Virus record (IMG/VR): IMGVR_UViG_3300027759_003944
From: a virus
Lineage: Duplodnaviria > Heunggongvirae > Uroviricota > Caudoviricetes
Direction: 5' to 3' (one strand)
DNA: 64,000 nt
The position numbers were made by a program, and so were the translations under genes. The notes under the pieces were generated by a model. That model searched no databases, was not told where the DNA came from, and worked only from the letters and a program-made list of their open reading frames with translations. This document shows, in pieces, positions 18,765-45,125 of the stretch; the stretch's first letter is position 1, and each line of letters starts with the position of its first letter.

Positions 18765-19477
18765 AGCAGTTAATTACAGGCGGATGCAGTTTTAGCGAAT
18801 GTTGCGGTCATGCTGGTACTTGGCCTCGTCACCTGTCAACTGCATTATATGACTACGAACATGTTAGTACAGCAATGGGCAGTCAAGGCAATGGTTTAAT
18901 CAGTCGCAAAGTGATATACCAGGTTACTGAAACATTAAAGCATACAGCCGCCCGAGATATCCTGGTGGGCATCATGTGGTCAGGACCTGATAGACATGAC
19001 TTTTATCAGTTAGGCAACCGACAGTTCGACAACCAAGACGGTTGGATGGAGAATCCCACACGTTTTGTGCCTAACGGGCAAGGTGCCTGGACCATTGTTA
19101 GTTCCGGTTGGCGTATGCCTGAATCGGCTAATTACTTTGTAAACTTTCATGATTTCATCGGGCAATACATTTACACATTAGAGCACATATTACGCACCCA
19201 ATGGTTTTTAAAATCTGCAGGTGTTAGATATTTCATGAGTACGTATACCAGTGCTGTGCTGCCTGAGATTGCACGAACACACAATGACACAAGACATCTG
19301 TATGAACTGGTTGATACTGATACGTTTTTGCCTGTGACTGGCGAGTATGAATGGTGCAGAGATCATTCAGGATTGCCTTTTCCCGTACCTACAGATCCGC
19401 ACCCTGGTGTGGAACAACATCAAGCATTTGTCAACCAAATCATCCTTCCTTATTTGAAAGAAAGAAACTTAGCATGA
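18761..19477 (+). CDS. hypothetical protein (238 aa; possible SGNH-type hydrolase, weak)
   Basis: ITGGCSFSE near N-terminus. Confidence 0.35.
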   Translation: MKQLITGGCSFSECCGHAGTWPRHLSTALYDYEHVSTAMGSQGNGLISRKVIYQVTETLKHTAARDILVGIMWSGPDRHDFYQLGNRQFDNQDGWMENPTRFVPNGQGAWTIVSSGWRMPESANYFVNFHDFIGQYIYTLEHILRTQWFLKSAGVRYFMSTYTSAVLPEIARTHNDTRHLYELVDTDTFLPVTGEYEWCRDHSGLPFPVPTDPHPGVEQHQAFVNQIILPYLKERNLA

Positions 19478-20442
19478 CATTTTTAGTAACAGGCGGCCTA
19501 GGCCTTATTGGACACAACATAGTGACACGATTGCAAGCATATGAGTCGGTTGTGGTTGTAGACAATAAAACCACATATGGTATTATTCCTCAAGCAGAAA
19601 TTGATTATCTAATGACTGAGCGCCGAAAGAAGATTGCCGAGGGAACACCAATCTATACAATTGATATTGTAGACGCTGACAACGTTGATTTTGTGATGAG
19701 CAAACACAAACCCAAAGTTGTGATTCACTGTGCCAGTTTTCCCCGACAGAAAGTTGTCAATGCCAACCCTGCGCTGGGTGCAGACGTAATGATGCGTGGT
19801 TTGATCAACTTGCTTGAGAGTGCCAAAAAACACAAAATTGAACGGTTTGTGTACATCAGTAGCAGTATGGTGTACGGAGACTTTGAAGACCAAGTGTTGG
19901 AAGATGATCTATGCCGTCCGCAAGGGCAGTATGGAATAATGAAACTATGTGGAGAAGACCTTGTTAAAGATTATAGCCGCCGTTGTGGCTTTGAGTATGT
20001 TATTATCCGCCCCAGTGCTGTATATGGGCCACTTGATGTTGAAGACCGAGTTGTTGCCAAATTCATGCTCACAGCAATGCGCGGCGGAGTGCTCCGAGTT
20101 AATGGAGCAAACGAAACACTAGACTTTACCTATGTGGATGATGCCGCAGATGGTATTGTGTCAGCAGCCACACGTATCATGTGCCGCAACATGACATTCA
20201 ACATCACCAAGTCACACTCAGTAAGTCTGTTACAAGCGGCAGAAATGATTGTGAAAATTGTGGGCAAGGGTACAATTGAAGTGCGGGACAAAGACACAGA
20301 CTTTCCCAGCCGCGGTGCGCTAAACATTGATCGTGCTCGAACCATCTTGAGTTTTGATCCAAAAGTAGACGTAGAAGAAGGATTCCAAAAGTATTATGAG
20401 TGGCTTAACAGTTCCGTTTACTGGACTACAAAAACAGTATAA
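19474..20442 (+). CDS. NAD-dependent sugar epimerase/dehydratase (SDR family)
   Basis: VTGGLGLIGHNIV Rossmann GxxGxxG; YxxxK-type region; 322 aa. Confidence 0.75.
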   Translation: MTFLVTGGLGLIGHNIVTRLQAYESVVVVDNKTTYGIIPQAEIDYLMTERRKKIAEGTPIYTIDIVDADNVDFVMSKHKPKVVIHCASFPRQKVVNANPALGADVMMRGLINLLESAKKHKIERFVYISSSMVYGDFEDQVLEDDLCRPQGQYGIMKLCGEDLVKDYSRRCGFEYVIIRPSAVYGPLDVEDRVVAKFMLTAMRGGVLRVNGANETLDFTYVDDAADGIVSAATRIMCRNMTFNITKSHSVSLLQAAEMIVKIVGKGTIEVRDKDTDFPSRGALNIDRARTILSFDPKVDVEEGFQKYYEWLNSSVYWTTKTV

Positions 20443-21475
20443 CAATCTTCGCACAGAGATCTTGGATGCGACAGATACAGTGTTGCGTTCAGGGTCTCTC
20501 ATGAGTGGCAATTACACTTATGAGTTTGAAGACTGGCTGGCTCGACGCAATCATCAACCCTATGCTGTGACCTGCCACTCAGGTACACAGGCTCTGGAGA
20601 TCATCGCCGAGTGGTATCGAACTGGTTGGAATACTACTCCCACTGTGGCTGTGCCCACGCTGACTTATCCAGCCACACTCAACGCATTTGTGCGAGCAGG
20701 CTGGAACTTGCACATTGTGGACACTGATCGATATGGTGTGATGGACATGACCAAACTTGCTCACGTGGCAGACATTCACGCTATATGCAGTGTGGGTCTG
20801 TATGGGCAATCTGTACAGCGCATGATGCAGAATTTATGGACGTTGACACACCCTGTGATTGAGGATGGCGCACAACATTGGCTCAGCAATGATTGCAAAC
20901 GCATAGGCGACTGTGCCATCAGTTTTGATCCCACAAAGAATCTGGCCAACTACGGCAATGGTGGCGCTGTGATCACTGCCAATCGTGAGTTGATGGAATT
21001 TGCTAGAAACTGGGTCAGTAACGGCAAGCACACAAAACATGCTGAAACAGGCACCAACAGTAGAATGAGTGAAACGGATTCGGCGCAGATGTTGGTCAAG
21101 ACTCGTTACATTGATCAGTGGCAACAACGTAGACGCACCATTGCTCAACACTGGATGGAGATGTTGAAACAAAATCCTGATATCACTTGTTTAATTGATG
21201 ACACCAACTTTGATCAACACTGCTTTCACAAGTTTGTAATACATACAGACAACCGAGATATACTACAACGTAATCTTGCCTTGCGTGGCGTTGAGACCAA
21301 AGTGCATTATGCAACACCCATGCATGAGTTGCCAGCATATCAACACTATCCCGGACCAGACTTGCTGAGTGCTGGCAGCAGTCTAGCACGTAGATGTCTT
21401 TCACTTCCGATCTACCCTGAACTGTCAGACTTGGAAGTTGAATACGTTATTGATTCTTTGCTCGATTGTGTCTAA
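20396..21475 (+). CDS. DegT/DnrJ/EryC1/StrS-family PLP-dependent sugar aminotransferase
   Basis: N-terminal LQKQYNNLRTEILDATDTVLRSGS..., SGTQALEIIA, later lysine-containing region; 359 aa; start may be later than 20396. Confidence 0.7.
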   Translation: MSGLTVPFTGLQKQYNNLRTEILDATDTVLRSGSLMSGNYTYEFEDWLARRNHQPYAVTCHSGTQALEIIAEWYRTGWNTTPTVAVPTLTYPATLNAFVRAGWNLHIVDTDRYGVMDMTKLAHVADIHAICSVGLYGQSVQRMMQNLWTLTHPVIEDGAQHWLSNDCKRIGDCAISFDPTKNLANYGNGGAVITANRELMEFARNWVSNGKHTKHAETGTNSRMSETDSAQMLVKTRYIDQWQQRRRTIAQHWMEMLKQNPDITCLIDDTNFDQHCFHKFVIHTDNRDILQRNLALRGVETKVHYATPMHELPAYQHYPGPDLLSAGSSLARRCLSLPIYPELSDLEVEYVIDSLLDCV

Positions 21476-22092
21476 TGTACAAAGTTTATATTATTTCATT
21501 AATAAATGCAAATGCAGGCATTCACTCACAATCAGCGTCACGTAGATATCATAATACAATAAAATCCTGTCAGGAATATCAATGGCCGGTTGAGCTTTTT
21601 AATGCTGTTAATGGATACAACTTAACAGAAAATGTATGGAGTGAGTACCATTTACTTCCACCAAAAAAATCAACAAAGCATTTGGATAAATTTGGAAATT
21701 TACCCGGGGCACACGGATGTTTTTTAAGTCACTTTACTCTGTGGAATCAATGCATAAGTTTAAATGAACCAATTGTAATTTTAGAAGACGATTCTGAAAT
21801 ATTGTCACCATTAACTGAAATTAGCACTGAGTTTGATTTGTTAAAATTAACACGCCCTTACGCTTTACATCAAAGTTCTAAACTAGGCACATGGTCTGCA
21901 GGTGCTTCTGCTTATTGGTTATCACCAATTGGAGCAAAAAAATTAGTAGAATTTTCGACTACACAAGGTCCAGGACATGCTGATAAATTAATGGGATCAA
22001 ATATTTTAAACTGGGGATACATACCATCCCCCATTGTAAAAATATCACCTACTAAAGGTAGTAGTACCAATCCAATCAATCATCCTTACTAA
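21475..22092 (+). CDS. glycosyltransferase family 25-like (LPS beta-1,4-galactosyltransferase-type)
   Basis: VYIISL...R, FNAVNG, GCFLSHFTLW, ILEDD motifs; AT-rich. Confidence 0.55.
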   Translation: MYKVYIISLINANAGIHSQSASRRYHNTIKSCQEYQWPVELFNAVNGYNLTENVWSEYHLLPPKKSTKHLDKFGNLPGAHGCFLSHFTLWNQCISLNEPIVILEDDSEILSPLTEISTEFDLLKLTRPYALHQSSKLGTWSAGASAYWLSPIGAKKLVEFSTTQGPGHADKLMGSNILNWGYIPSPIVKISPTKGSSTNPINHPY

Positions 22093-24293
22093 GGTACCAA
22101 ACTGCGTTTGACGAACGCATACGTGGCCAACCAATCCCACTCGTAACTCTTTTTCAGCGCCGCAAAGTCACCGCTGACTGAGTCATAGTACTCCACACCA
22201 TCTTCTGCACCTTTGCGACTCCATTGCCCTTCTGTGGTATCAACAGTGAGCCACCGGTTGAGTCTGTGCTCGCTTTCCACATCAGGCAAACTGGCTTTTA
22301 ATTTGAGCACTTCACGAAATGCAGTGCGCCAACACATCCAGTCCGAATCATGATACATGGCTGTGCCCGACACAATGGGCACAACTTCATGTGGTTGGTC
22401 CAGGGTAAAGTCTAATCCTTGCCCAGTATTCTCCAACACCAGCTGCTTGTTGTAAGCAATCATGGCCTGGTGTCCATATATCAATCCGTTCACAGGATTG
22501 TGTGCATGAAAGATATAGTGCTTGGGTTGTTGCATGCGATCCGGTTGCCAGGACCAGTCAAAATCTCTAGTGACTTCTAGTTTGGCAAACACAGCAAAAA
22601 ACCAAGGTGTAGTACTTTGTCTAGCAGCCGCTTGATATGCTGCCACACGACCATTCACACCCGACACATGATGCATGAGATTCTTATGATTTGCGTCGTG
22701 GGCTGTGTATTCCAAATGTTCAAAGTAAATTTCGGCATTTATTTCACCGTTGCTGATAAACACAATGTCTAATGGAGAGTCTTTCAACATGCGCTGTGTA
22801 CGATCTATATGAGCATAGTCATACAATTGTGTCTTTATGTAAGGAACAGCCACCCGGGGAACAACTACTGTGCCTGCACCACTCCCAACAGGCACAATGG
22901 TCTTGGTCTCTTGCCGCCATAATGGCACAGTCACTAGATTACCCTGTACATAGTCATGATTGGTAAAGGTGGCCACGGGGCCTGCCCAGTCAGTTGTTTT
23001 TACTGCATCTACTTGACTATCAGCACTATGCACAATCACTGGCATAGATCTACGTGGTACAGCGGTGTTGACAAAGTTCACATCATACCACTCTAGTAAC
23101 GCTTTCTTTTCAGCGCGGGCAGCAAATGTGGGTACATGCATGAAGAAGGTGTCTCCAAACTTTTCATTATCTGACTTGAACACATGCAACATTGTGGCCT
23201 GCCATTGTTCGGGGTGCCACGAAAAGTCAAAGACAGTGTAGTCGCAAATGCTTGAGCATATCCACACAAACTCATGTTCAGTGCCTATGCTCTTGGCAAT
23301 GCGTATTAGTGTATCTCGGTAGTTGTCAAAGTAACGCACAGTGCGTGTGGTGTTGGGAATTTGTCCAGCTGAGCCGCATAGGTGATCTATTTCGTAGATG
23401 GCTGTGGCATTGCTGGCAATTTTTGCACGTATCTGATCCACATACTTGATTTCTACAGCACCAGGTACTGTGTACACTGGACCACCTGTGCGTTGATGCT
23501 GAGTGGCAAATTGATATATGTACGGAGGATCGCCTGGGTCAGGCCTCCACGAAAAGTCCACTGTGGATTCATCTATGCTGTTGGGCACAGTCCAAGCAGT
23601 TCGATCTTCCGGCAACTCTGCACGTGGCCAGTTCACATACTTGCGTTCTGTAGCACCTGGCACATGATATTCCACTGTGGGCATTTTTTCTGCTGACCAC
23701 CATTGATTACCAAATACGTAAACATAAGGCGGGTCTCCAGGATCTGGACACCAACTACGGTCCCAGTTACACTCCACTAGAGTGTGCCAGCGACTGGCAT
23801 GTCGTTCAGGCAACCGTGCCTGTGGGTTGTCTATGTATTTGGTTTGTGTGGCTCCGGGCACATGATATTCCACAGTGGGCATCACCGTGCCAGGCCACCA
23901 TTGATTACCAAATACGTAAACATAAGGCGGGTCATGTGGATGTGGTGCCCAAGACGTATCAAATTCCGCGTCCTTTACTAAAAATTTGTAAGGTTTGAGA
24001 TGACTACGATTAAGAATTGTTTGAGCATGAAAGTGATAGTTGTCCACAGCACCTGTTCTTGGCACCAGATACGTGCCCGAATGATCATGCCATTGGCTGG
24101 GCCATGCATGAGTAAATTCGCTTTGCCATGGCACTGGTTCCCAAAGAAAATCAAAGCCAGTATAATCCGCTAAGTATGTGATCCACCAGAAATATCTAGT
24201 GCGACTCAGACTCTGCGCATGTTCAAATGACTCAGCAGGCCGTTCGTGTGCAAACACTCCGGGTTTTTTACCAGAATAAAATACATCAAACAT
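22089..24293 (-). CDS. 734-aa protein with about six tandem roughly 45-aa repeats (F/D-x-SW-x-PDPGDPPYVYVFGNQWW...TVEYHVPGA)
   Basis: Three near-identical and three degenerate repeat units visible in translation; no recognisable catalytic motif. Confidence 0.6.
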   Translation of the reverse strand: MFDVFYSGKKPGVFAHERPAESFEHAQSLSRTRYFWWITYLADYTGFDFLWEPVPWQSEFTHAWPSQWHDHSGTYLVPRTGAVDNYHFHAQTILNRSHLKPYKFLVKDAEFDTSWAPHPHDPPYVYVFGNQWWPGTVMPTVEYHVPGATQTKYIDNPQARLPERHASRWHTLVECNWDRSWCPDPGDPPYVYVFGNQWWSAEKMPTVEYHVPGATERKYVNWPRAELPEDRTAWTVPNSIDESTVDFSWRPDPGDPPYIYQFATQHQRTGGPVYTVPGAVEIKYVDQIRAKIASNATAIYEIDHLCGSAGQIPNTTRTVRYFDNYRDTLIRIAKSIGTEHEFVWICSSICDYTVFDFSWHPEQWQATMLHVFKSDNEKFGDTFFMHVPTFAARAEKKALLEWYDVNFVNTAVPRRSMPVIVHSADSQVDAVKTTDWAGPVATFTNHDYVQGNLVTVPLWRQETKTIVPVGSGAGTVVVPRVAVPYIKTQLYDYAHIDRTQRMLKDSPLDIVFISNGEINAEIYFEHLEYTAHDANHKNLMHHVSGVNGRVAAYQAAARQSTTPWFFAVFAKLEVTRDFDWSWQPDRMQQPKHYIFHAHNPVNGLIYGHQAMIAYNKQLVLENTGQGLDFTLDQPHEVVPIVSGTAMYHDSDWMCWRTAFREVLKLKASLPDVESEHRLNRWLTVDTTEGQWSRKGAEDGVEYYDSVSGDFAALKKSYEWDWLATYAFVKRSLVP

Positions 24294-25470
24294 GATTAGA
24301 ATTGACGAAATCTATAACAATACATTTTGGCCTTGGATTAAGAAACATCATCCTGGAGTGAGATTATGGTGGTGCGAACCATTCGGTAGGACTGATCCTG
24401 ACAGCTTAGTTAATTATGGCAGTGATGACATACATGAACACAATTATACACTGTTATGGGACCAAGAGCCTATTCATTTGAACGTGCATCTACCCACTTT
24501 TGAATCTGTGGCGGAGAAAAATTCTGATTTTGCCAAGACTTGGCAACATAAACAACGTAACCAAGAGCACCTACACAACAAACTGCGCAAAATAACTGAT
24601 ATGCCACCTTGGATTCTTAAAGAAAAAAAATTCGGATCAATCATCACCAGCGAACGTGACAGTGACACTGTTGACGCTGTATGCAAAAAATTTGGTTGGC
24701 ATAGTTATTATTATTTTTTTCATGGCTGGGCTGCTTTAGACTGGTATCGAGGATATGACAAGACTTTTTTGATCACTCCCTGGCAAGAAAGAACAATTAC
24801 CCAAACATTCCTGGCACCCAATCGAATTGTGGCAGGAGCACGTGAGCACAGATTAGAAATGTTGTATTGGATATTTAAACTTGGTATGAACAACAATCAT
24901 GTATCTTGTCCTGCTGTATGTCCAGCAGAAAACATTGCCATACTAGATGCCGTACAGCCTCTTAGAGACCAGTACCCTGACATTGAAACAGTGTTTGCCC
25001 AACAGGCATTGCCCCGAAACTTTGAGGGGGAAATTGATCATCCCATGCATTCATGTTGGCTCAGTTTGTTTGATGAATCAGCTGAAAGTTTGTTATACTT
25101 GGTTACTGAAACTGTGGCTACAGGTCGCAGACATCACTTGACTGAAAAAACATTCAAACCCATTGCCTTGGGTATGCCGTTTATGATTGTGGGCACACAG
25201 GGCAGTTTGCGGTATTTGCGCAGTTATGGTTTCCGAACATTTGGTGACCTGTGGGATGAAAGTTATGATGACGAACCAGATGACTCAAAGCGCATAGAAA
25301 AAATTGCACAGGTATTGAAGCAGTTAGAACAAAGTGATCGCCAGGCCATATTTGAATCTGCACATGATGTTATTGCGCACAATTGGAATCATTTTTACAA
25401 CGGCGGTTTTGAACAAATACTATGGCAAGAATTGCAGGACATGTTGAATGAGCTTGAATTTAATAGCTGA
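24292..25470 (+). CDS. GT10-like (alpha-1,3-fucosyltransferase-like) glycosyltransferase, paralogue 1
   Basis: C-terminal block LSLFDESAESLLYLVTET...TEKTFKPIALGMPFMIVG...GFRTFGDL resembles the FucT FxLxFENS...YVTEK...P...VDDF motif. Confidence 0.5.
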   Translation: MIRIDEIYNNTFWPWIKKHHPGVRLWWCEPFGRTDPDSLVNYGSDDIHEHNYTLLWDQEPIHLNVHLPTFESVAEKNSDFAKTWQHKQRNQEHLHNKLRKITDMPPWILKEKKFGSIITSERDSDTVDAVCKKFGWHSYYYFFHGWAALDWYRGYDKTFLITPWQERTITQTFLAPNRIVAGAREHRLEMLYWIFKLGMNNNHVSCPAVCPAENIAILDAVQPLRDQYPDIETVFAQQALPRNFEGEIDHPMHSCWLSLFDESAESLLYLVTETVATGRRHHLTEKTFKPIALGMPFMIVGTQGSLRYLRSYGFRTFGDLWDESYDDEPDDSKRIEKIAQVLKQLEQSDRQAIFESAHDVIAHNWNHFYNGGFEQILWQELQDMLNELEFNS

Positions 25471-26629
25471 TCAAGTCACCCGGGGTAGAATATATCCTGC
25501 ACTGGCTCGGCACCAGGCTGCGCCATACACTCAAGGCTGGCGTGAGTTTGGACAACATTGGCCCAACACTATACCCATACGACTGCAAGAATACTGTGAC
25601 CATCACGGTGTCAAACTAAACATCACGGATATTGATTCTGAGTGGCCAGCTGATGCATTTTACCCTGTGGGACTAGGCTTCTTTAATTTTGACATTGATT
25701 ACTTTGAACTAATGCCTGAGCGCATACGCACAGGTTTATTCTTTGGCGATGTGCGTGTGTTGTTTTACTATCATGAAGGCGATAACCCGTTCCGTATCAA
25801 AACTAGACTTGATGACCTATGTACCAAGCACAATTTGCGCGATGACTGCTATGTATTTGTGAGTTCTAATTCAGCGGCCAGTAGTATTCCACGTTTTGTT
25901 GCATTTCAAGACAGTGAACTTTGGTACTGGCAGCGCAATCATGAATCACCAGCATTGAACATACACCATGAACCTAGAGAGCGTGATTTTACTGTGTTGA
26001 ACAGACTGCACAAAAGCTGGCGTGCCTTGATCATGGCAGATTTAAAAAGTCTTGACATACTGAATAACTCATACTGGAGCTATTGCGAGCCAGGCGAATT
26101 TGCGGATTCGGACTGTCCAATAGAAATTGATGCCATTGCAGGTTTACGCACTGCTACTGAGGAGTTTTTGAAATCAGCACCTTATGTGAGTGATGAGTTG
26201 GACAATGATCAGCGAAACAATCACAGCACACTGGTTGCCAAGTATCATGTCAACAGCTATTGCAACATTGTGGTTGAAAGTCAATTTGATTACGATCAAA
26301 GTGGTGGCGTACTCTTAAGTGAAAAAACATTCAAACCTATCAAACATGGGCAACTGTTTTTTATTGCAGGTGCTGCTGGTAGTTTGCAAATGCTACGTGA
26401 CTTGGGATATCGTGTGTTTGATTCAGTATTGGACAACAGTTACGATTTAGAACCTGATCACACACAACGCTGGATGGCGCTGACAAGATCCATTTATTTT
26501 GCTCAACAGCAATTACCACAACTTTTTGAGCAGGCCAGAGCTGACATAGAACACAACCAGCAGTTATTTCAAGCCATAAAGACTGAACGTTTAAATAGCT
26601 TGATCAAGGACATCAATGAATCCCATTAA
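25448..26629 (+). CDS. GT10-like glycosyltransferase, paralogue 2
   Basis: IVVESQF...SEKTFKPIKHGQLFFIAG...GYRVFDSV; homologous to 24292 gene. Confidence 0.5.
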   Translation: MSLNLIADQVTRGRIYPALARHQAAPYTQGWREFGQHWPNTIPIRLQEYCDHHGVKLNITDIDSEWPADAFYPVGLGFFNFDIDYFELMPERIRTGLFFGDVRVLFYYHEGDNPFRIKTRLDDLCTKHNLRDDCYVFVSSNSAASSIPRFVAFQDSELWYWQRNHESPALNIHHEPRERDFTVLNRLHKSWRALIMADLKSLDILNNSYWSYCEPGEFADSDCPIEIDAIAGLRTATEEFLKSAPYVSDELDNDQRNNHSTLVAKYHVNSYCNIVVESQFDYDQSGGVLLSEKTFKPIKHGQLFFIAGAAGSLQMLRDLGYRVFDSVLDNSYDLEPDHTQRWMALTRSIYFAQQQLPQLFEQARADIEHNQQLFQAIKTERLNSLIKDINESH

Positions 26630-27656
26630 CTCTTACACCAGCTGGCAGCCACTTGAAGAAGTCATTGTGGGCCGTGCGTACACACCAGACTATTTTGACT
26701 TTATTGAAAATGCACAGGTACGCAATCAACTGCAACAAATACTGTCAGAGACCGAAGAAGACCTGGCCAACTTGCAAAAGACCATTGAGACTTATGGCGC
26801 TCGAGTGCGTAGACCTGACTTGCCCAACAAACATCACTTTCAACGTGATCAAATGAAAGGCAACGGCGCACCACTGCCGCCACTTACACCAAGAGACTGG
26901 CAGATCACACTGGGTGATCAACTGTTGCGTGTGCTGGCCATGCCAGAACTGGATGGTTTGTGTGCCGAGTATGAAGCAGCACAGCCCGGCAGTGTGATCA
27001 ACCCACATGGTCCCACCGGCTGGGACGAGAACTGTATTCTCAATCAAGCATCAGCATCATGCATTGTGCGTGTGGGCCGTGATGTATTTTTTGACAACTC
27101 TGACTTCCTGCGTCCAGGCCAAACTCGTTGGATTGTGGACAATGTATTAGGTCCAGAATATCGCATACACGAAGCCATAACAGATGGACATGGAGATGCT
27201 GTGTTTGCTATATTGAAGCCGGGGGTGTTGTTGTCAAGCAAACACGATGTAAACTTGAACTTGGCAGCAGACTTTCCGGGATGGGACGTTTGTAAAATTT
27301 GGGACAGCAGTATCTGGGCTGCCATGGAAGTAGGCAAGTTTAAATATGAACAATCACCAGGTGCTTGGTATGTACAAGGACAAACCCCCACACCCGAGTT
27401 CACAGACTTTGTTGACACTTATCTAACCAAGTGGACTGGCTTTGTTGCAGAAACTGTGTTTGATGTCAACTGCTTGGTGCTGGATGAGTCACACGTTATA
27501 TTCAGTGCTTACAATCGAGAAGTCTTTGACTATTGCCGTCGGCATCGGATAGAACCCATCATCAGTGAACTGCGTCACAGTTACTTCTGGGATGGTGGTA
27601 TCAGTTGTTGCACACAAGACATTCGACGTCGCGGCGGCCTGGAAACTTACCTTTAA
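26616..27656 (+). CDS. amidinotransferase-family protein (AGAT/StrB-like)
   Basis: C-terminal WDGGISCCTQDIRRRGGLETYL matches the amidinotransferase catalytic-Cys tail GGG(F)HC(V)T(L)D(V)RRG(T)L(Q)SY. Confidence 0.55.
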   Translation: MNPINSYTSWQPLEEVIVGRAYTPDYFDFIENAQVRNQLQQILSETEEDLANLQKTIETYGARVRRPDLPNKHHFQRDQMKGNGAPLPPLTPRDWQITLGDQLLRVLAMPELDGLCAEYEAAQPGSVINPHGPTGWDENCILNQASASCIVRVGRDVFFDNSDFLRPGQTRWIVDNVLGPEYRIHEAITDGHGDAVFAILKPGVLLSSKHDVNLNLAADFPGWDVCKIWDSSIWAAMEVGKFKYEQSPGAWYVQGQTPTPEFTDFVDTYLTKWTGFVAETVFDVNCLVLDESHVIFSAYNREVFDYCRRHRIEPIISELRHSYFWDGGISCCTQDIRRRGGLETYL

Positions 27657-37679: not shown

Positions 37680-39060
37680 ACTCCTCCCACCATGATCGCA
37701 TCTCAGGGAATGTTTTCACGAAGTCTGTGCCGCGGCGACGGTCATGTTCACTGAAAAAACGATAGAAGTCTGCTCGGGCACGTGAGTGATCTGTCAACTG
37801 TGCTGATTGCATCCAGGCAATGTCACGATCCAGTCTGTGCAATTCATAGTCTTTGAATCCTTTGAATGGTGCGTCTTCAGTTTCGATCTGTCGCACCATC
37901 CAGGCCCACAACAGTTCCAGTTTGTCTACATAACTCTCAGGCAGGATCTGTAGACTCTGCCATGCAGGCTCACGCAACACAGGTGTGTCAAACCACACAC
38001 GTTGATATGCGTTGCTGTATACTTTGCGCAGGCCCAGGATGCCAGCAAACAACTTGTCCAGACTGGTCACACTCAAGTTGTTCATTGTGACAATAAATGT
38101 AAGACTTGAATAATTGGGTACTTCTGTAAGGAATTGGTTTACTCGATCCCATAACAGGTCAAAGTCCAAACCGTCACGCATGTATTCTGCTTGGGCTCCC
38201 CAACCATCTAAACTCACATACTGCATGAAGTGTTCAATGCGCCCGTCACAGATGCGTTTTACATAGTCTAAGTATTTCTGCCATGACTTTTCATCTACTG
38301 AGAAGTTACTTGTGACATTCAAATGCAGTTTAGGACTGGGGTTGGCCAACACATAATCAAACACACGATAGGTATTTTTGTCCAGCAACGGCTCACCACC
38401 AGTCATTCTAAAATGTTCTAGGTGAGGGTACAGGTCTGGCCACCAAGACCAGAAGGCGTCAACATAAGGGTTTGATTCTCTAACGGGAATAGGACCACGA
38501 CTGCCAGCAAAATGCTCAGGAGCATTATGAGGCACCAGGGTAGGATATGCTCCCAGTCTAGCAACTTCATCTGCCCATGAACTACTAAACTGAGGGCTGC
38601 AATAACTACACCGCAGATTGCAAGCGTGATTAAAATTAACTTCAACATAACTTGGAATGACATTTTCCGCTCCTGTGCTATTTTTTATTGATTCAAAATC
38701 TACGGCTGCCCAAGGCTCACCCGAACGATAGTGTCGGTCACTCAACTTGCCTTCGTTCTCCATGTTCCAGCAGTAAGAGCATTCTGTAGGCCGCTCTCCT
38801 GCCAACATCATCCGACGCTGTGCTTTTTTATGAGCAGTATTGTGCAATGCCGAAACATCTATTGTAATCTCTGCAGGATTGATAGCATGCAGCGGAGGAT
38901 GATAACATGAGTTGTTCATGCCTGTGGTCAGGTGTAGACTAACTTGTTTCCATTTGGCCAGGCAAAGTGCAGGACCCAGTTGTTGTTTCATTTGTTCAGC
39001 AGAATTTAAGAACTTGCTCTTGGTGTCTATTGACTCATCGCCTTTGTTCATTTTGGCCAT
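37654..39060 (-). CDS. radical SAM protein, paralogue E
   Basis: CNLRCSYCSPQFSSSW (MoaA-like); MTGGEPLL; AEYMRDGLDFD; N-terminal SCYHPPLH and GERPTECSYCW. Confidence 0.7.
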   Translation of the reverse strand: MAKMNKGDESIDTKSKFLNSAEQMKQQLGPALCLAKWKQVSLHLTTGMNNSCYHPPLHAINPAEITIDVSALHNTAHKKAQRRMMLAGERPTECSYCWNMENEGKLSDRHYRSGEPWAAVDFESIKNSTGAENVIPSYVEVNFNHACNLRCSYCSPQFSSSWADEVARLGAYPTLVPHNAPEHFAGSRGPIPVRESNPYVDAFWSWWPDLYPHLEHFRMTGGEPLLDKNTYRVFDYVLANPSPKLHLNVTSNFSVDEKSWQKYLDYVKRICDGRIEHFMQYVSLDGWGAQAEYMRDGLDFDLLWDRVNQFLTEVPNYSSLTFIVTMNNLSVTSLDKLFAGILGLRKVYSNAYQRVWFDTPVLREPAWQSLQILPESYVDKLELLWAWMVRQIETEDAPFKGFKDYELHRLDRDIAWMQSAQLTDHSRARADFYRFFSEHDRRRGTDFVKTFPEMRSWWEECAYHARQA

Positions 39061-40124
39061 GTTGATCTATCATAATATTTTTCAGTTTGCAAAGTGAACT
39101 GTTTGAATAATGGCTGCAATTCATATATCAAACGTCGATTGTGTTCTAGATCTTTTTGACACTTTTCCAATATAGTATTTGCAGAACCGTTACGAATCAG
39201 TGTATCAAGTATGTCAAACACATGATCCACTCGGTGTACCCCAGCATCATTATCATAATCCAAGCCAAAAACGTTTTCATAAAATCTAAAACCAACCAAT
39301 TTTTTACATATTTGATCTATCAGATCAGCATCCATGAATTCTTTCAGCGGTGTCCATACTTCTCTTATGATGTCCATCTCTTTAGCTCTTTTTATAGAAT
39401 TTCGTCCAGCAATTAACATAAAAGGACGTCCATACAAAATTGGACGTATAAATTTTTCAGATATGGTATAACAGTCTTCAGCAGTGGATGTTTCAAACAC
39501 TAATTCTACAGCAATCTGTCGATAAACCGTTTCCCAATCAGTATCCATTGTGCCAACAATTGGCGGTTTAAATGTTTTACCAATATCGCTGTAGGGACGG
39601 ATTTCTAATACTTCGCTAAATCTATCGTTGGTTTGGCACAGGTACTCAAGTAATTCTGGAGTATCAATTTGCTCTTTCAAGTCGTGATGAAAACTTGTGA
39701 GTCCAAGATCTTTAAATTCAAAATTTTTATGCCTTACTGCTCCTCTAATTCTTTCTGCTGTGGCGCGGCCTAAAAACATGCCGTACACCTTGCTGCCGTT
39801 CCAAACAGGTGGTTCAATATTGTGCTGCCATGCAGACAAAGGTTCCGTTGACCAAAAAGTATTAAAAATTATTTGTACAGTATAAAGGTTGTGCTTTTCA
39901 AGAAAATTTGGAGTTATAACAGTTATCTTGGTTGGATCCCAGTTCCAGACTGCACAAAGTTCATCCAGTAACTGGAACAATCCGGAATGCCTACCAGACC
40001 GGCATTCTTTGGAAAACAGCTCAACACTGCCGTGTTGTTGCATGCTTTGAATAATTCGTGAAGCCAGTTCAACGGGATGAAATATTTCACTGTCGCCCCA
40101 GTACCGTTGTATATCAATTACCAT
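39048..40124 (-). CDS. GT10-like glycosyltransferase, paralogue 4 (AT-rich)
   Basis: VFETSTAEDCYTISEKFIRPILYGRPFMLIAG. Confidence 0.45.
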   Translation of the reverse strand: MVIDIQRYWGDSEIFHPVELASRIIQSMQQHGSVELFSKECRSGRHSGLFQLLDELCAVWNWDPTKITVITPNFLEKHNLYTVQIIFNTFWSTEPLSAWQHNIEPPVWNGSKVYGMFLGRATAERIRGAVRHKNFEFKDLGLTSFHHDLKEQIDTPELLEYLCQTNDRFSEVLEIRPYSDIGKTFKPPIVGTMDTDWETVYRQIAVELVFETSTAEDCYTISEKFIRPILYGRPFMLIAGRNSIKRAKEMDIIREVWTPLKEFMDADLIDQICKKLVGFRFYENVFGLDYDNDAGVHRVDHVFDILDTLIRNGSANTILEKCQKDLEHNRRLIYELQPLFKQFTLQTEKYYDRSTWPK

Positions 40125-40803
40125 GGGAAAAAACAGCCTTTTGTTTTAAATCTACATAGCAATCTTTGCCGTTGCGTTCTGGCCAATCCTGTGGCCTTGC
40201 ATCCATCAACAAAATTCCGCGAGCTGCGTCTTCGGGGGTCATGTACATGTGCCAACCCATTGTTTGAATATTGTCATTCACATAAGCGGTGTGCGAATTT
40301 CTTCCATCGTACCGAGCCAGTTTCAACCACTTGGCACATTCCGCATTGTCAGTTAGAATTATACCACCACGGCCAATGGGTATGGCTTTTTTTATTTGAA
40401 AACTAACCACTCTCAATCCGCCGCTGTACATGCCTCGGTGCCATTGAATAGCTGCGTCCCATAGCGGATATGGTTTGAGTTGATAACACCCTATCCAGTC
40501 TTGATCGGTAAATTCAACCTGACAGCCGGCATGTTGGATATACATTGGCACACTGGCATAGGTATGCGAAGGTATAGTGATGGTACCTTGTGCATTCAAA
40601 TACTTCAAACTCAAAAACAAACCATGACTGCAACAATCTACTGCTACTGCATAAGGTGCACCAGCAAACTCAGCCACCTTGTTTTCAAATATTTCTACCA
40701 CTTCTCTAGGGTCATCAAAACTGTAACCTTTGTCTTGCAACATACGCAACTCAGGACGCTGTAGTTCTGAGGGCAAGGTATCCAGTGGCCATATGTTATA
40801 CAT
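40114..40803 (-). CDS. DegT-family PLP-dependent aminotransferase (short form)
   Basis: FENKVAEFAGAPYAVAVDCCSHGLFLSL...IPSHTYASVP; SFQIKKAIPIGRGGIIL lysine region; start placed at ATG 40803 (8-nt overlap with upstream stop) rather than 40851. Confidence 0.6.
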   Translation of the reverse strand: MYNIWPLDTLPSELQRPELRMLQDKGYSFDDPREVVEIFENKVAEFAGAPYAVAVDCCSHGLFLSLKYLNAQGTITIPSHTYASVPMYIQHAGCQVEFTDQDWIGCYQLKPYPLWDAAIQWHRGMYSGGLRVVSFQIKKAIPIGRGGIILTDNAECAKWLKLARYDGRNSHTAYVNDNIQTMGWHMYMTPEDAARGILLMDARPQDWPERNGKDCYVDLKQKAVFSHGN

Positions 40804-41443
40804 GTTTAAATTCCTTGATTTCTCCCACGTACCGGGCTGGGCTTCCCACATACCGGCCAGGACGCTCTAGGTTTTTTGTAACTGTGCTGACTGCACCAAC
40901 TTCAATACCATCACACAGTGTCAGTGCATTGAGCGCACTGCTGCGAAAATTGAATACCGAATCATTGCCTACTTGAGTGCGTCCTGCAATCATTGTGCCT
41001 GAATGTAATTGCACATTGTTACCTAGTTTACTGTAATGAGCTATCAAGCAATAAGTTTCTACAATGCAATGGTCGCCAATTTGACTTCCAAGTAAAATTG
41101 TACTAAATGGAGACACAAAGCTGCCACGACCAACCACAGCAGATACATCAGGATTGTAGCACACCACAGTGTCATGCACGTATCTTATACAATCTAGATT
41201 CTGCCGATCAACCATGTCTATTATGTGTTTTCTTAACTCTTGGTCAAGCGTAAAGGCAACCCCGTACTGGAATTGATCTTTGTTGTCTAGATCAACAAAT
41301 TGTTCGGGTTCTAAAATAAACACCTGCCCTGAATGTTCTTGAGACATAAAATGATAGGCTTCCTGAGTCAATGTGCTCGGGGCATACCCTATGAGACAGA
41401 TTGGTTTTTGATTAGCTATTAACATTTTTAATCCAAGGTTCAA
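40796..41443 (-). CDS. hexapeptide-repeat sugar N-acetyltransferase (NeuD/PglD-like)
   Basis: N-terminal Rossmann-like ICLIGY then left-handed beta-helix repeats (GSFVSPFSTILLGSQIGDHCIVETYCLIAHYSKLGNNVQLHSGTMIAG). Confidence 0.65.
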   Translation of the reverse strand: MNLGLKMLIANQKPICLIGYAPSTLTQEAYHFMSQEHSGQVFILEPEQFVDLDNKDQFQYGVAFTLDQELRKHIIDMVDRQNLDCIRYVHDTVVCYNPDVSAVVGRGSFVSPFSTILLGSQIGDHCIVETYCLIAHYSKLGNNVQLHSGTMIAGRTQVGNDSVFNFRSSALNALTLCDGIEVGAVSTVTKNLERPGRYVGSPARYVGEIKEFKHV

Positions 41444-42026
41444 ACATGTCCACGGTGTTTTCCCAAGATGTCAATTCAAGACTCTTGTATCTTACACTCA
41501 CACACCATCGTGAACGGGTACGTGTTTCAACATTGTGCGGTATGCCGGTGCGCACAAGCGTGGGGGTAGTACCTATAATTTTTCTCGTACTCTCATACGG
41601 TGCAATTTGGTCTAATGGCCAGTCTCTGTATAAAGTACCGGCAGGTGTCAACGAATCCACAGGTGGAATTGGTGGGATATCATACCAAATCATTTCGCTG
41701 TCGTCTAGCGAGTCCATGGTCCAATTGATTGCAGAGACAGCAGGTTCGCCGGACCCTGTCAGGATATCAACATGTACAGCAGGATGCAAATAATTGGGTG
41801 TACGATAAAATATCAACGCAGTTCGCACAGGAATTCCTATACTGTGCATGTATTCTATCCAATCAGCCGACAATAATTGGTCAACTGTTTGGTGTCCAAA
41901 ATGCCAAATACCCGCTGGAAGTTCAGCATATATGCTGTTGCGTAACAAATCATCAAGCACAACGTCTTTGCGGACTGCTTCTGCCACATCAATGGTCAAC
42001 TCCTGCCATGGTTGTTGATAATTCAT
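41412..42026 (-). CDS. hypothetical protein, possible 2OG-Fe(II) oxygenase/cupin (HxD...H...RxS)
   Basis: PAVHVD...GIPHNVETRTRSRWCVSVR. Confidence 0.3.
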   Translation of the reverse strand: MNYQQPWQELTIDVAEAVRKDVVLDDLLRNSIYAELPAGIWHFGHQTVDQLLSADWIEYMHSIGIPVRTALIFYRTPNYLHPAVHVDILTGSGEPAVSAINWTMDSLDDSEMIWYDIPPIPPVDSLTPAGTLYRDWPLDQIAPYESTRKIIGTTPTLVRTGIPHNVETRTRSRWCVSVRYKSLELTSWENTVDMFEPWIKNVNS

Positions 42027-42995
42027 TTACCACCCTTCCTGTTTGCGTATTACATCAATCTCTCTAGTCATGATGTCTTGATTGTGCCAGTTTGAACGAT
42101 AGTGTTGTTTGAAGAACCGGCTTTGTTCACCTTCAAATACAGCCATGGGCAAATCTAACTGGCTGTGTAACTCATCCGCCACACGTCCGCCCAACAGTCT
42201 TGGCTCTGAATCTTTTACACTGTCCCATATCTCAGTCAGGGCATCAAAGTCTTGCACCAGTCGATAATCCCAGTTTGTGAGCATGGTCATGTAGGTGCCT
42301 TGTCTAGCACCGGCCATGGCCCATTGACCGTTATTGACATCCGCACCAATATTGTGCCATATGGTCAAATTATCTAGATTTCTTTTGTGTACTTGCTGTT
42401 GAAATTCTTCTACTGTGGGTCGGGCACCTCGGCTCAGGCACATTTTAACACCTTCGCGGAATCCAGCCCGCCAGGCTTGAAAAGCAGAAGCATTGGGGTA
42501 TGTGGTGGAGTAGCAGTTGTACATGGGCCAATACATGGGATCAAAACAAAACTCCACTTCGGTTTCCACACGTCCGTCGGTGGCTTCGTGTGTGCGCATG
42601 TTATTGACAAAATCCTTGGTCCATGAACTCAATCCGCCATTGCCATACATCAATCCGTTGATGTGATTTCTTGCTCGCCAGCGGAAAACAGCTTGTTCGT
42701 AATCTGCTGTAGGAAGATCCAGAGTAGCATTGAAAAAAACAGGGTCTGGAAGATTATCTCCGTCAATAAGAACAAAGCGATCAGTAGTACTCTCAGCGGC
42801 GGCGGCTTTGTGGGCTGCATCACTTCCTTTAACTCCGTCCACACGTTTTGCCCAAGGCACCATGTTGCGAATCTTGATCCAAAACTCTTCTTTTTCAGGT
42901 TCATCATATGTCAAATATATGCAATCTAAGTCTGCTATGTCAATGCGTTTCATATGTTTGTTTGCTCCAGCGGATATGAGGTTGATCCTCGGCAA
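42027..42995 (-). CDS. hypothetical protein (322 aa)
   Basis: ORF; VLIDGDN could be a DxD but unsupported. Confidence 0.45.
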   Translation of the reverse strand: MPRINLISAGANKHMKRIDIADLDCIYLTYDEPEKEEFWIKIRNMVPWAKRVDGVKGSDAAHKAAAAESTTDRFVLIDGDNLPDPVFFNATLDLPTADYEQAVFRWRARNHINGLMYGNGGLSSWTKDFVNNMRTHEATDGRVETEVEFCFDPMYWPMYNCYSTTYPNASAFQAWRAGFREGVKMCLSRGARPTVEEFQQQVHKRNLDNLTIWHNIGADVNNGQWAMAGARQGTYMTMLTNWDYRLVQDFDALTEIWDSVKDSEPRLLGGRVADELHSQLDLPMAVFEGEQSRFFKQHYRSNWHNQDIMTREIDVIRKQEGW

Positions 42996-43284
42996 CGATT
43001 ACAGCGACATTGTCGGGATGACAAGGGGATCCAGAGTTGCCAGGGACCAATTTTGTTGTGGTTGCCCACGTTATTTCTACTAATTGACCATCTCGCACAC
43101 GCACGTTCATGGAGCCGCGAGCAAAGGTTGCTTGATCAATTTCAATGTATATACCAGGTACCCGTTCCATGCTGTAGAATAAAGGCTGACCTTGATCATC
43201 ATGATACAACAAGTACACCACTGGTTGTGGCTCTGGCATGTTGTGCAGTATGGACCAAAACTCTTCAGGTGTCATGCTTGCCAT
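42940..43284 (-). CDS. hypothetical protein (114 aa)
   Basis: ORF. Confidence 0.4.
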   Translation of the reverse strand: MASMTPEEFWSILHNMPEPQPVVYLLYHDDQGQPLFYSMERVPGIYIEIDQATFARGSMNVRVRDGQLVEITWATTTKLVPGNSGSPCHPDNVAVIVAEDQPHIRWSKQTYETH

Positions 43285-44039
43285 TCTTTAACATGGTAAT
43301 GAAATGCACCTGTCTGTGCCACAGTTTGTACACGCAGGCGCATGTCTTGATATTCCCAAATCAGTTCCTTGGTCCAGGCTTCAGTTGCTGTGCCTGCTAT
43401 GTGGCGTTTCATATGCACAATCTTTGGATATGTGCTGAATGGCATTGTGACCCGATCTCTGCCCATGATTTCAGCGGCCATGGCATACACTAGGTCAGTT
43501 GATGGTGTTTCATCCGGAAACTTTATGAGTTTTCGAAACTCTGCCCAATTGTCAAATATGTCTCGTACCCAGCCAAAAAACTCCCGAGCCGTTTCACTGC
43601 GCCGCCAGTAGGTCACAGCATTGTACACATCAGGCAGGTGGTTCACATCAAACACTCGTCTGTAGTTTCTCGCTGTGCTAACATTATCCTGCCAGTCTCT
43701 ACAGCCTGTTGATATCACAACATCTCTGTGTCTAAATTGGTCCCACCAATGAGCAATAGGTGATACAATAAACATATCTGCTTCCAGTTTGATGGTTTCA
43801 CGAAATGGTGTGAGTCGGAACAGTTGTGCATCGTTGGCATAAGGATTGGCTTGTGGCACAAGTTGTCTGTGGTGATCGTACAAGGGATCAGTGTAAGAGC
43901 TGTCTGTGACCAGGCAGATCCGTGCAGACGGATCCCAGTAGCGTATGGTCTTGGCCAAGGTTCTAGCACAATCCTGATAATCAACTGTGTCGCTGTTGAC
44001 AGCAACAATTAAGTAACCTTGTTCATCAATGGGCTGCAA
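43272..44039 (-). CDS. putative GT-A-fold nucleotide-sugar transferase, paralogue 1
   Basis: YLIVAVNSDTVDY...ICLVTDS and KLEADMFIVS (DxD-like); paralogous to next gene. Confidence 0.4.
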   Translation of the reverse strand: MQPIDEQGYLIVAVNSDTVDYQDCARTLAKTIRYWDPSARICLVTDSSYTDPLYDHHRQLVPQANPYANDAQLFRLTPFRETIKLEADMFIVSPIAHWWDQFRHRDVVISTGCRDWQDNVSTARNYRRVFDVNHLPDVYNAVTYWRRSETAREFFGWVRDIFDNWAEFRKLIKFPDETPSTDLVYAMAAEIMGRDRVTMPFSTYPKIVHMKRHIAGTATEAWTKELIWEYQDMRLRVQTVAQTGAFHYHVKEWQA

Positions 44040-44877
44040 CTATCACCCCCAGGTGTCGTTTACACATGGCATGAAAGTCTAAACCAGCCCAACTTAGAGT
44101 TTTGAGCCGACCTTCAGAGTTGGTATATTCAATTTCATAATGATCCTGTTCCACACAAGTCAATCCATGATCTGGCATGACGTTGAGCATGGGGAAGAAT
44201 ATCTCATGCACTGATTGTTCAGCACCTGCTACCAGTCCCAGGGCAATGCTTAGGGCATAGTCATTGCGATAGTTGCTTTGGTGGATGCCGTACAAGTCTC
44301 GGTAATGTTGCCAGTTGTTGCGTATCATTTGCATTGAATCAAATATGTATTGGCTAATGTTGCCACGACGGAACATCATCACTGTGGCCCACCACATGGG
44401 CATATTATACGCACCAAATGTGTCAAGGTTGGTCATACTGCTGGGATCAAACCCATCCTTAAATGCCGCAAACTGTTGTGGTAGTGTTAGTACTTCCAAT
44501 AATCGATCACTGGCTATCACATAGTCAGCATCTAGTACCAAGGTTTGATCAAATGGTGACAGTTCATAAGCATTAATTCGTCCAGCGTTGTGCCAAGTCA
44601 CCGTAGAGCCGTAATCCGCAAAGTGTCTTGAGCCGCCAGTGTCAGGCACAGTGGCAATGATGTGTTCAAATTCATGCTCGGCAGCTGCCGCAGGATCATC
44701 GGTGACCAAGGCCACAGGCAAGTTCAAATGCCTGCGAATGTTCCGAGCACTCCATGCTGCCATGGCAATGTAGTCCGTTGCCTCATTATTGAAGGCAAAG
44801 ATTAGCACACCTTGACTCAGCGTTTTTGATTTAGCTCTTGCCATTCTACCTGCCATGCATTCATTTGTTCTTGCCAA
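44026..44877 (-). CDS. putative GT-A-fold nucleotide-sugar transferase, paralogue 2
   Basis: GVLIFAFNNEATDY...VALVTDD, LVLDADYVIAS DxD; start may be internal (44844 or 44856). Confidence 0.45.
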   Translation of the reverse strand: MARTNECMAGRMARAKSKTLSQGVLIFAFNNEATDYIAMAAWSARNIRRHLNLPVALVTDDPAAAAEHEFEHIIATVPDTGGSRHFADYGSTVTWHNAGRINAYELSPFDQTLVLDADYVIASDRLLEVLTLPQQFAAFKDGFDPSSMTNLDTFGAYNMPMWWATVMMFRRGNISQYIFDSMQMIRNNWQHYRDLYGIHQSNYRNDYALSIALGLVAGAEQSVHEIFFPMLNVMPDHGLTCVEQDHYEIEYTNSEGRLKTLSWAGLDFHAMCKRHLGVIVAAH

Positions 44878-45125
44878 CGTTCATGTGCTCGGGCAAACAA
44901 GTCTGTCACAGTAATCTTCACCGGGGTTTCATACAAGTCTAGTATCACAACATCCTTGTCTTGTGCGCAGGCCAACAGCACAGTCAGTAATTCTGGTCCG
45001 GCACGCCACATTCCGCCCCCATGGGCAAATACCATACGTGCTTCATATTTTTCTTTTAGCACTCGTCGTGCGGCTGCGTGATCAAATCTTGCTCGTGCAT
45101 GAGCAACCAAGGCATCAGTGTTCAT
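44817..45125 (-). CDS. hypothetical protein (102 aa)
   Basis: ORF. Confidence 0.4.
   Translation of the reverse strand: MNTDALVAHARARFDHAAARRVLKEKYEARMVFAHGGGMWRAGPELLTVLLACAQDKDVVILDLYETPVKITVTDLFARAHERWQEQMNAWQVEWQELNQKR

Follow-up and report, generated by a model that had tools for sequence, protein, structure and literature searches.

The 64,000-nucleotide stretch of the IMG/VR virus record IMGVR_UViG_3300027759_003944 that we analysed (the window) carries, at 19474-45125, a gene island that very probably makes and tailors a glycan, and we give about even chances to the fuller reading that it forms a self-contained cytoplasmic glycan-building and glycan-tailoring module whose product is a complex, variable oligosaccharide on the virion fibres. 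The island holds 25 genes and one 33-codon micro-gene (26 in all), the ends of which overlap or abut; it opens with the ATG at 19474 of a short-chain dehydrogenase/reductase (SDR) gene (product MTFLVTGG..., the mechanical open-reading frame (ORF) opening earlier, at 19351) and closes at 45125 with the start of the last minus-strand island gene. An initial annotation of this DNA had proposed about 25 genes between exactly these coordinates and had read them as a phage sugar-modification or glycosylation island of unusual complexity beside tail-fibre genes. This description stands: searches with hidden Markov models (HMMs) of the ORFs mostly supported the sugar-enzyme, GT25 glycosyltransferase and radical S-adenosylmethionine (SAM) families, the radical SAM family is glycan-linked, and the adjacency to fibre genes is kept across related loci. 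A host lipopolysaccharide (LPS) island in a bacterial chromosome was considered and is ruled out by the phage context of structural and replication-type genes, as the relatives found are almost all viral and the 64-kb window is phage DNA, encoding a 5066-aa virion structural protein (48772-63972, minus strand; phrog_10938, E 6.5e-195, with an N-terminus that matches a baseplate-wedge/tail-fibre connector), fibre-like proteins, an AAA ATPase that shares 53% identity with its counterpart in jumbo phage PA5oct and has a DUF2201 partner, and an ordinary ThyX, the sole nucleotide enzyme found in the window. The island had no megablast match among 50,697 phage records.

Six radical SAM genes lie on the minus strand of the island, the number first annotated. 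The products of five of them (30253-31530, 31527-32738, 33991-35253, 35234-36577 and 37654-39060) form the core of the array and score 268, 340, 387, 286 and 315 bits, respectively, against the NCBIfam model NF033640 (N_Twi_rSAM, ‘twitch domain-containing radical SAM protein’), which has a curated cut-off of 170 bits. The sixth (32735-33994) is a divergent accessory enzyme with an N-terminal SPASM-like domain and the same Pfam architecture, which at 83 bits falls under the cut-off and is not a member. Three of the radical SAM proteins carry Pfam SPASM N-terminal to Radical_SAM (at 9-78 and 119-283 in the 31527-32738 product), and the radical SAM alignment exhibits invariant cysteines C140/C144/C147, an invariant GGEP motif and invariant N-terminal cysteines C32/C51/C96; the CX3CX2C and GGEP motifs are both found in the 30253-31530 product. 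No characterised enzyme of the N-terminal-twitch radical SAM (N_Twi_rSAM) kind came up in our literature searches. A seventh radical SAM gene lies outside the island at 7003-8457 (plus strand) and combines B12-binding and Radical_SAM domains (class B type).

A role of the N_Twi_rSAM array in glycan chemistry is well supported, since domain fusions, bacterial gene contexts and an independent phage lineage all tie the family to glycan biosynthesis. A fusion search seeded with a bacterial N_Twi_rSAM from a Methylomagnum plasmid (family name assigned by the Prokaryotic Genome Annotation Pipeline) recovered several proteins of ~855 aa in which the radical SAM is joined to Glycos_transf_1/Glyco_transf_4 domains of the GT1/GT4 type (P0165, P0168, P0176, P0190), and others in which it is joined to the carbohydrate-binding domain CBM_4_9 (P0160, P0170, P0181). 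The four bacterial neighbourhoods that we examined all proved to be glycan loci, three of them polysaccharide loci and the fourth the Methylomagnum plasmid locus: one encodes a Wzm/Wzt-type ABC transporter, GT2/GT4 genes and polysaccharide deacetylases, one a nucleoside-diphosphate (NDP)-6-deoxyhexose pathway with GT2 genes, one AsnB, GT4, UbiA and a tandem pair of radical SAM genes, and one glycosyltransferases (GTs), a polyprenyl synthase, UbiA and an ABC transporter. The family is rare in isolated phages (3 of 50,697 records), and one of these, Vibrio phage K566 (OZ196521.1), encodes at 15198-27984 five N-twitch radical SAMs, among which two GT8 genes and one GT4-like gene are interspersed; this array adjoins an LpxC homologue and a PagP-annotated gene, and NAD-salvage genes flank it. 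The fusions and contexts together predict sugar or glycan substrates for N_Twi_rSAM enzymes, which gives a testable handle on the family.

The arrangement of the island is not a chance one, because the same gene set and order recur in 80 related loci. We compared the island with IMG/VR contigs encoding a relative of the radical SAM at 33991-35253, of which there were 241, and examined the best 80 (75-87% protein identity) with ±10 kb of flanking sequence per locus, within which copy numbers were counted. Gene set and order recurred in all 80, and the fibre genes were adjacent wherever the flank reached. The conserved backbone reads fibre genes, a homologue of the 44817 gene, two GT8-like genes, homologues of the 42940 and 42027 genes, the radical SAM and GT-B array, a homologue of the 29232 gene and the carbamoyltransferase, followed on the opposite strand by the amidinotransferase, GT-B genes, the 734-aa protein, DegT and the SDR. 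Where the flank extends to these genes, nearly every locus has two GT8-like genes, a single carbamoyltransferase gene and single copies of the 42027, 42940 and 29232 genes; the radical SAM genes number four to eight and the GT-B genes zero to seven. Cassettes enter this frame at a few points; those of the window are a block at 39048-42026 (a GT-B gene, a short DegT gene, an acyltransferase gene and the gene of a 204-aa protein) and the accessory radical SAM at 32735-33994, each present in a minority of the loci, with an orthologue of the latter in only nine. A fixed frame with variable tailoring genes recalls surface-polysaccharide loci and suggests a product under diversifying selection.

The window, which stems from a freshwater metagenome of the Joint Genome Institute, belongs to an abundant, uncultured clade of freshwater jumbo phages, as judged from the 241 related contigs, several of which are 340-350 kb in length. 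One core island protein falls into more than 6000 clusters at 90% identity in a protein collection, three contigs encode the exact radical SAM product, and one of these, Ga0114974_10000180 (3300009183, 55.8 kb), has the island genes in the same order. Relatives of the ten island gene families searched lie almost only on viral or uncultured-phage contigs (nine of the families among the 80 loci only). A genome-contig search with one island protein recovered two near-identical contigs of 148 and 183 kb (NZ_JBBAKG010000003.1 and NZ_JBBAKG010000001.1), both binned in a Haliscomenobacter metagenome-assembled genome and both with the whole island in the same order; these are either mis-binned phage or a weak hint of a host in the Saprospiraceae (Bacteroidota). 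Our literature searches found no description of this island, and a link between the present clade and the ‘moraphage’ lineage, with genomes of up to 307 kb (PMC12619734), could not be made.

The SDR gene (19474-20442, plus strand) encodes an extended SDR of the NDP-sugar dehydratase/epimerase type (Pfam Epimerase, E 3e-41; YxxxK motif, here YGIMK), which agrees with its first assignment, and its best NCBIfam match is dTDP-glucose 4,6-dehydratase at 115 bits, under the cut-off. Both DegT aminotransferases named at the outset also qualify as DegT/DnrJ/EryC1 proteins: a full-length, PseC-like sugar aminotransferase (20396-21475, plus strand; Pfam DegT_DnrJ_EryC1, E 2e-54, 186 bits), for which PseC is the best NCBIfam match (133 bits, under the cut-off), and a short form of 245 aa in the variable cassette (40114-40851, minus strand; Pfam DegT, E 1e-15, 58 bits), which retains the SFxxxK lysine motif as SFQIKK. 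The short form is 37% identical to the 195-aa ‘AHBA synthase’ (ORF305) encoded at 38498-39085 in cyanophage S-SCSM2R, and this conserved homologue excludes a pseudogene or fragment; there is thus a compact DegT-like family of 195-245 aa common to the jumbo phage and cyanomyovirus S-SCSM2R. Next to it in the cassette is a NeuD/PglD-like hexapeptide acyltransferase (40796-41443, minus strand; Pfam Hexapep, E 2.5e-11), where the hexapeptide family is confirmed and TIGR03570 (NeuD/PglB/VioB) is indeed the best NCBIfam match, while the specific NeuD/PglD label falls short (96 bits against a cut-off of 160.8) and only the generic Hexapep repeat is reached. The earlier proposal that these enzymes belong to a di-N-acetyl-trideoxyhexose or nonulosonate pathway was not borne out, as neither the SDR, the DegT proteins nor the acetyltransferase reached an NCBIfam equivalog cut-off.

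The two decorating enzymes proposed at first, an amidinotransferase and a carbamoyltransferase, are both well placed in their families. The amidinotransferase (26616-27656, plus strand) belongs to the AGAT/StrB1 family: a profile of its orthologues matched AGAT (5e-18), StrB1 (1.9e-13), SxtG (1.5e-12) and HsvA (5.9e-12) in the PDB, in three stretches spanning residues 4-346, and C331, invariant in the orthologues, aligns with the active-site cysteine of AGAT (GGISCCTQDIRRRG vs. AGAT GGGFHCWTCDVRRRG). It has a median identity of 89% across relatives, and Pfam returned no family match for it at E ≤ 0.01. The carbamoyltransferase (27653-29137, minus strand) is of the NodU/CmcH/TobZ type, with both Pfam domains over their cut-offs (Carbam_trans_N, 124 bits against 24; Carbam_trans_C, 163 bits against 27), and misses the NodU equivalog at 132 bits against a cut-off of 1000.

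Seven putative GTs had been listed in the initial annotation, one GT25, four GT10-like and two GT-A-like, and these fared differently. The GT25 enzyme of 208 aa (21466-22092, plus strand) is confirmed by Pfam Glyco_transf_25 at 61 bits against a cut-off of 24, in a match that spans profile positions 2-109 of 199, the N-terminal half only. The four ‘GT10-like’ genes (24292-25470 and 25448-26629 on the plus strand, 36558-37679 and the cassette gene 39048-40124, which varies across loci, on the minus strand) are indeed paralogues of one another that share a C-terminal TEKxxKPxxxGxPF motif, and we call them a new GT-B family rather than GT10, with a shared fold predicted from a model. GT10 membership is rejected because the label rests on the motif, with no support from Glyco_transf_10 or another HMM: 31 diverse members gave no match to a Pfam GT family, even with the threshold relaxed to E ≤ 1, GT10 is not preferred to other GT-B families, and the motif region is all that aligns with a cyanophage GT10, without significance. 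The GT-B assignment draws on a confident AlphaFold2 model of the 36558-37679 product (predicted local distance difference test, pLDDT, 92.5) and on comparison with viral structure predictions, among which the family matched Mimivirus L138, which belongs to the fibril-glycan cluster (PMC10117803), and numerous proteins of uncultured phages. In viruses the family is also fused to dTDP-glucose 4,6-dehydratase and to UDP-glucose dehydrogenase; it gave no tblastn match in phages, and its profile found no credible sequence match in the PDB.

The two GT-A-like genes (43272-44039 and 44026-44877, minus strand) are paralogues as well (BLASTP E 2e-6), and their acidic-x-Asp (D/E-A-D) motif, EADM in the first and DADY in the second, is conserved. 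The first is in phrog_1903, neither matches Pfam, and the profile of the pair has weak PDB matches (glycogenin at E 0.067-0.1 and NleB at 0.7); GT8-type (GT-A) enzymes are plausible here. Another candidate GT-A-like transferase is the 322-aa product of 42027-42995 (minus strand), which has a DGD motif and is present in 72 loci at 70-86% identity; nothing credible was found for it in the PDB or Pfam. To this protein the C-terminal domain of the large repeat protein (22089-24293, minus strand) is related by BLASTP (E 2e-4) and by alignment. That protein was recognised from the start, and comprises 734 aa with six [FWV]DxSWxP units at 47, 111, 177, 245, 355 and 578, three of the six copies being nearly identical; it had no match in Pfam, PHROG or NCBIfam.

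Several further genes are conserved in the clade with no family assignment, the smallest being the micro-gene (29134-29235, minus strand), which encodes a basic peptide of 33 aa (MKWIRQLWDRITLEIRYRKKLKELRKRDPFIYK), overlaps both neighbours by ATGA and was also called as a gene by the Joint Genome Institute. It is present between the 29232 gene and the carbamoyltransferase gene in 68 of 81 loci, in 51 distinct DNA versions, and it is more conserved than the surrounding enzymes, because many residues stay the same although as many as six synonymous codons encode them. M1, W3 and the RDPF[IV]Y[KR] tail were set by the search pattern itself, which also limited residue 4 to I/L/V, and the invariance at residues 14, 17, 18, 20 and 23-27 is independent of that pattern. 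We conclude that the micro-gene is under strong purifying selection and translationally coupled. Neither K566 nor the bacterial loci with the same radical SAM family have it, and its peptide has no cysteine. The neighbouring 342-aa protein (29232-30260, minus strand) is present in 71 of the 80 loci and found no match in Pfam, PHROG, NCBIfam or the PDB; its AlphaFold model had a pLDDT of only 63. Also conserved are a 114-aa protein with no family match (42940-43284, minus strand; 70 loci) and the 102-aa product of the first minus-strand island gene (44817-45125; 56 loci). The 204-aa cassette protein (41412-42026, minus strand) is a paralogue of the 18237-18764 product (BLASTP E 0.003); both have an HxD...H pattern, merely a hint of an oxygenase, and the family matched nothing in the PDB or Pfam. 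Pfam, PHROG and NCBIfam yielded nothing useful for the products of the genes that begin at 22089, 24292, 25448, 29232, 36558, 39048, 41412, 42027, 42940, 44026 and 44817.

The reactions that we propose are drawn from the chemistry of the families to which these proteins were found to belong. The SDR would convert a host NDP-hexose to a 4-keto-6-deoxy intermediate, to which the DegT enzymes would add amino groups, one of them acylated by the NeuD-like transferase. With arginine as the donor, the AGAT-type amidinotransferase would turn a free amine into a guanidino group, and the NodU/TobZ-type enzyme would O-carbamoylate a hydroxyl. Seven to nine GTs would build the chain (GT25, four GT-B and two GT8-like enzymes, perhaps joined by the 42027 product and the 734-aa protein), while the five conserved N-twitch radical SAMs and the accessory copies would carry out radical tailoring of the sugars, for which epimerisation, dehydration, dehydrogenation and C-C bond formation are candidate chemistries. 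The variable cassettes in the fixed backbone would diversify the product between related phages.

Our best guess for the acceptor, suggested by gene position and protein composition, is the Ser/Thr-rich fibre proteins encoded immediately upstream. Two fibre-like genes (45180-47963) lie directly upstream of the minus-strand block of the island on the same strand, and encode proteins of 322 aa with 29.5% Ser+Thr (45180-46148) and 600 aa with 21.8% Ser+Thr (46161-47963), or 22-30% in round figures, the latter with PHROG matches of the virion structural and fibre type. Virus-encoded GTs and sugar-nucleotide enzymes are thus found beside structural genes, the context associated with virion glycosylation, and this adjacency is conserved. 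We found no initiating phosphoglycosyl transferase and no Wzx/Wzy or ABC exporter, and the 25 longer island proteins have no membrane-type hydrophobic segment, so that no flippase, polymerase, ligase, exporter or initiating transferase is among them.

Several points weigh against fibre glycosylation. The glycan and its acceptor are themselves predicted from the genes. A strong terminator-like hairpin (45157-45176, minus strand; AAAGGGGCACCAGCCCCTTT, an 8-bp stem with five GC pairs, then a T-run) stands at the boundary between fibre genes and island, followed on the island side by a promoter-like site (45131-45159, minus strand; TTTACT-17-TACAAT); the two part the island from the fibre genes, and co-expression with late genes is not implied. 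The related cluster of K566 adjoins the LpxC- and PagP-like genes rather than structural genes. No nucleotidyltransferase for sugar activation was found, and the SDR, DegT and acetyltransferase miss the equivalog cut-offs as described. The core proteins 29232, 42940 and 44817 and the micro-gene find no place in the proposed scheme, and the three proteins are without detectable relatives outside the clade. T4 DNA glucosyltransferase is the joint best structural match of the GT-B model, at 6% sequence identity. Lastly, GT25, GT8 and GT-B enzymes that work on lipid-linked LPS intermediates are also soluble, so that a target in the host envelope is compatible with the lack of membrane proteins.

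This last point leads to an alternative that we consider unlikely, in which soluble phage enzymes would remodel a host surface glycan by acting on lipid-linked LPS, O-antigen or capsule intermediates at the inner membrane face, and host flippases or ABC exporters would deliver the altered glycan to the surface; this might, for instance, prevent superinfection or alter the properties of the cell over a long jumbo-phage infection. GT8 is a classic LPS-core family, Pfam describes GT25 as an LPS biosynthesis family, the N_Twi_rSAM genes of bacteria are found in loci for exported polysaccharides, together with Wzm/Wzt-type ABC transporter, UbiA and polyprenyl synthase genes, and the K566 cluster has its LpxC- and PagP-like neighbours; a similar gene set in S-SCSM2R was read by its authors as cell-wall or surface modification (PMC12801897). 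Such remodelling is at odds with an island that encodes no initiating transferase, flippase, polymerase, ligase or exporter and with a fibre-adjacent position kept across the clade, and a lytic jumbo phage would presumably gain less from serotype conversion than a temperate phage. Very unlikely, in our estimate, is hypermodification of DNA, whereby the GTs and tailoring enzymes would put complex sugars on modified bases to evade host restriction. To our knowledge, the DNA glycosylation systems described so far work with one to three GTs, whereas the island has eight, and six radical SAMs besides. Its surroundings are structural and not replication genes, and none of the 59 proteins scanned is a hydroxymethylase or base-exchange enzyme, in a scan that took in the window without 17 short ORFs at 5348-16954 and nothing of the genome beyond it. 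Cassette diversification would nonetheless fit an arms race, and phage GTs are described as hypermodifying DNA with diverse glycans in the work of Pyle et al. 2024, as cited in PMC12619734. The T4-type DNA glucosyltransferases differ from the island in sequence (the 6% identity above) and in having far fewer enzymes, and the window has no hydroxymethyl-base pathway.

The same enzymes could instead make a soluble toxin, signal or cofactor, either an aminoglycoside-like pseudo-oligosaccharide or a glycosylated, radical-SAM-modified peptide from the micro-gene, which we likewise consider very unlikely. StrB1-type, TobZ-type, DegT and twitch radical SAM enzymes (cf. BtrN, NeoN) together with GTs recall aminoglycoside pathways, and the 33-aa peptide is a selected, translationally coupled part of the cluster; most characterised SPASM/twitch enzymes, according to reviews, modify peptides. 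Set against this, there is no cyclitol synthase, exporter or self-resistance gene in the island, no recognition element (RRE-type domain) of the ribosomally synthesised and post-translationally modified peptide (RiPP) kind was detected, the peptide lacks cysteine and is missing from K566 and the bacterial loci with the same radical SAMs, and the bacterial contexts of that family are polysaccharide loci. Lower still we place the idea that the radical SAMs, amidinotransferase, carbamoyltransferase and GTs all act on the 33-aa micro-protein or on a virion protein as a scaffold; if true, this would yield a radical-cross-linked, guanidinylated and carbamoylated glycopeptide, a phage RiPP/glycan hybrid without a known counterpart.

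Glycosylation of virion fibres by the island would find its nearest counterparts in giant viruses, where the fibril glycosylation clusters of Mimivirus and other Megavirinae (R132-L143; PMC10117803, PMC8456856) make fibril glycans shown chemically. Those clusters are likewise virus-encoded and host-independent, combine a 4,6-dehydratase, a pyridoxal-phosphate aminotransferase, an N-acetyltransferase and several GTs to make bacterial-type amino-deoxy sugars, differ between clades, and include L138, which matches the present GT-B family at the level of predicted fold. They belong, however, to eukaryotic giant viruses and have no radical SAM array, amidinotransferase or carbamoyltransferase, and the present island is known from its genes alone. 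In mycobacteriophages, phage GTs that adjoin structural genes O-glycosylate virion proteins (Freeman et al. 2023, as cited in PMC12619734 and PMC12801897). Phage-encoded GTs beside structural genes are what the island has in common with that system. The mycobacteriophage enzymes are reportedly few GTs that work on host sugars, with no sugar-nucleotide tailoring and no radical SAMs, in siphoviruses of Actinobacteria.

Cyanophage S-SCSM2R (PMC12801897; PQ898602) has sugar and ‘antibiotic synthesis’ gene islands and one amidinotransferase in its virion proteome, so that sugar-gene islands in aquatic phages have already been reported at the level of annotation. It resembles the present phage in its aquatic origin and in an assortment of many GTs (GT10, GT11, GT25, GT1, GT2), NDP-sugar epimerases, two amidinotransferases, the short DegT, a radical SAM and 2-oxoglutarate (2OG) oxygenases; in contrast, S-SCSM2R is a cyanophage of the T4-like kind in which these genes are scattered, its one radical SAM is short, and it has neither an N-twitch array nor, in the stretch examined, a carbamoyltransferase. 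The bacterial NF033640 loci have the same radical SAM family with its N-terminal auxiliary-cluster domain beside or fused to GTs, yet hold one or two copies and are accompanied by exporters and lipid-carrier enzymes. The novel features are a conserved array in which five to eight N-twitch radical SAMs are combined with AGAT-type amidino and NodU/TobZ-type carbamoyl transfer, the GT-B family that Pfam does not detect, and a cassette architecture next to the fibre genes of a very abundant clade that has no cultured member. Viral glycosylation has so far been shown chemically for giant viruses and a few mycobacteriophages, and the island would extend it to abundant freshwater jumbo phages; the predicted guanidino and carbamoyl decorations with a radical SAM array would be a chemistry not known for any viral glycan. 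Cassette diversification beside receptor-binding fibres suggests that the product matters in phage-host or phage-predator interactions in lakes.

The left end of the island may lie near 18237, because the 18237-18764 gene (plus strand) is the paralogue of the 41412-42026 cassette gene, and the gene that follows it (18761-19477, plus strand) encodes a DUF6071/SGNH-like protein with a GxSxS start and a weak likeness (E 0.001) to a GDSL-like cassette gene inside the islands of other loci. Packing within the island is very tight despite its strand switches: the divergent genes 22089-24293 and 24292-25470 overlap by 2 nt at their start codons, and convergent pairs, such as 26616-27656 and 27653-29137, overlap by 4 nt, which leaves no intergenic room for promoters or terminators at these switches. 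A T4-type late promoter (TATAAATA) was not enriched (2 observed vs. 1.4 expected). Near-consensus sigma-70 promoters precede plus-strand genes at 4776-4912, 9805-9935 and 13392-13546 (among them TTGACA-17-TATAAT, ahead of 13544, and TTGACA-17-TACAAT, ahead of 9933), which suggests early units that depend on the host RNA polymerase. The window also has a group of metabolic genes odd for a phage (1009-5371), comprising a fatty acid desaturase (1009-1710), an alpha/beta hydrolase (3029-3934), a class IV aminotransferase (3903-4775) and a rubrerythrin (4910-5371), and one may speculate that the rubrerythrin protects oxygen-sensitive Fe-S enzymes.

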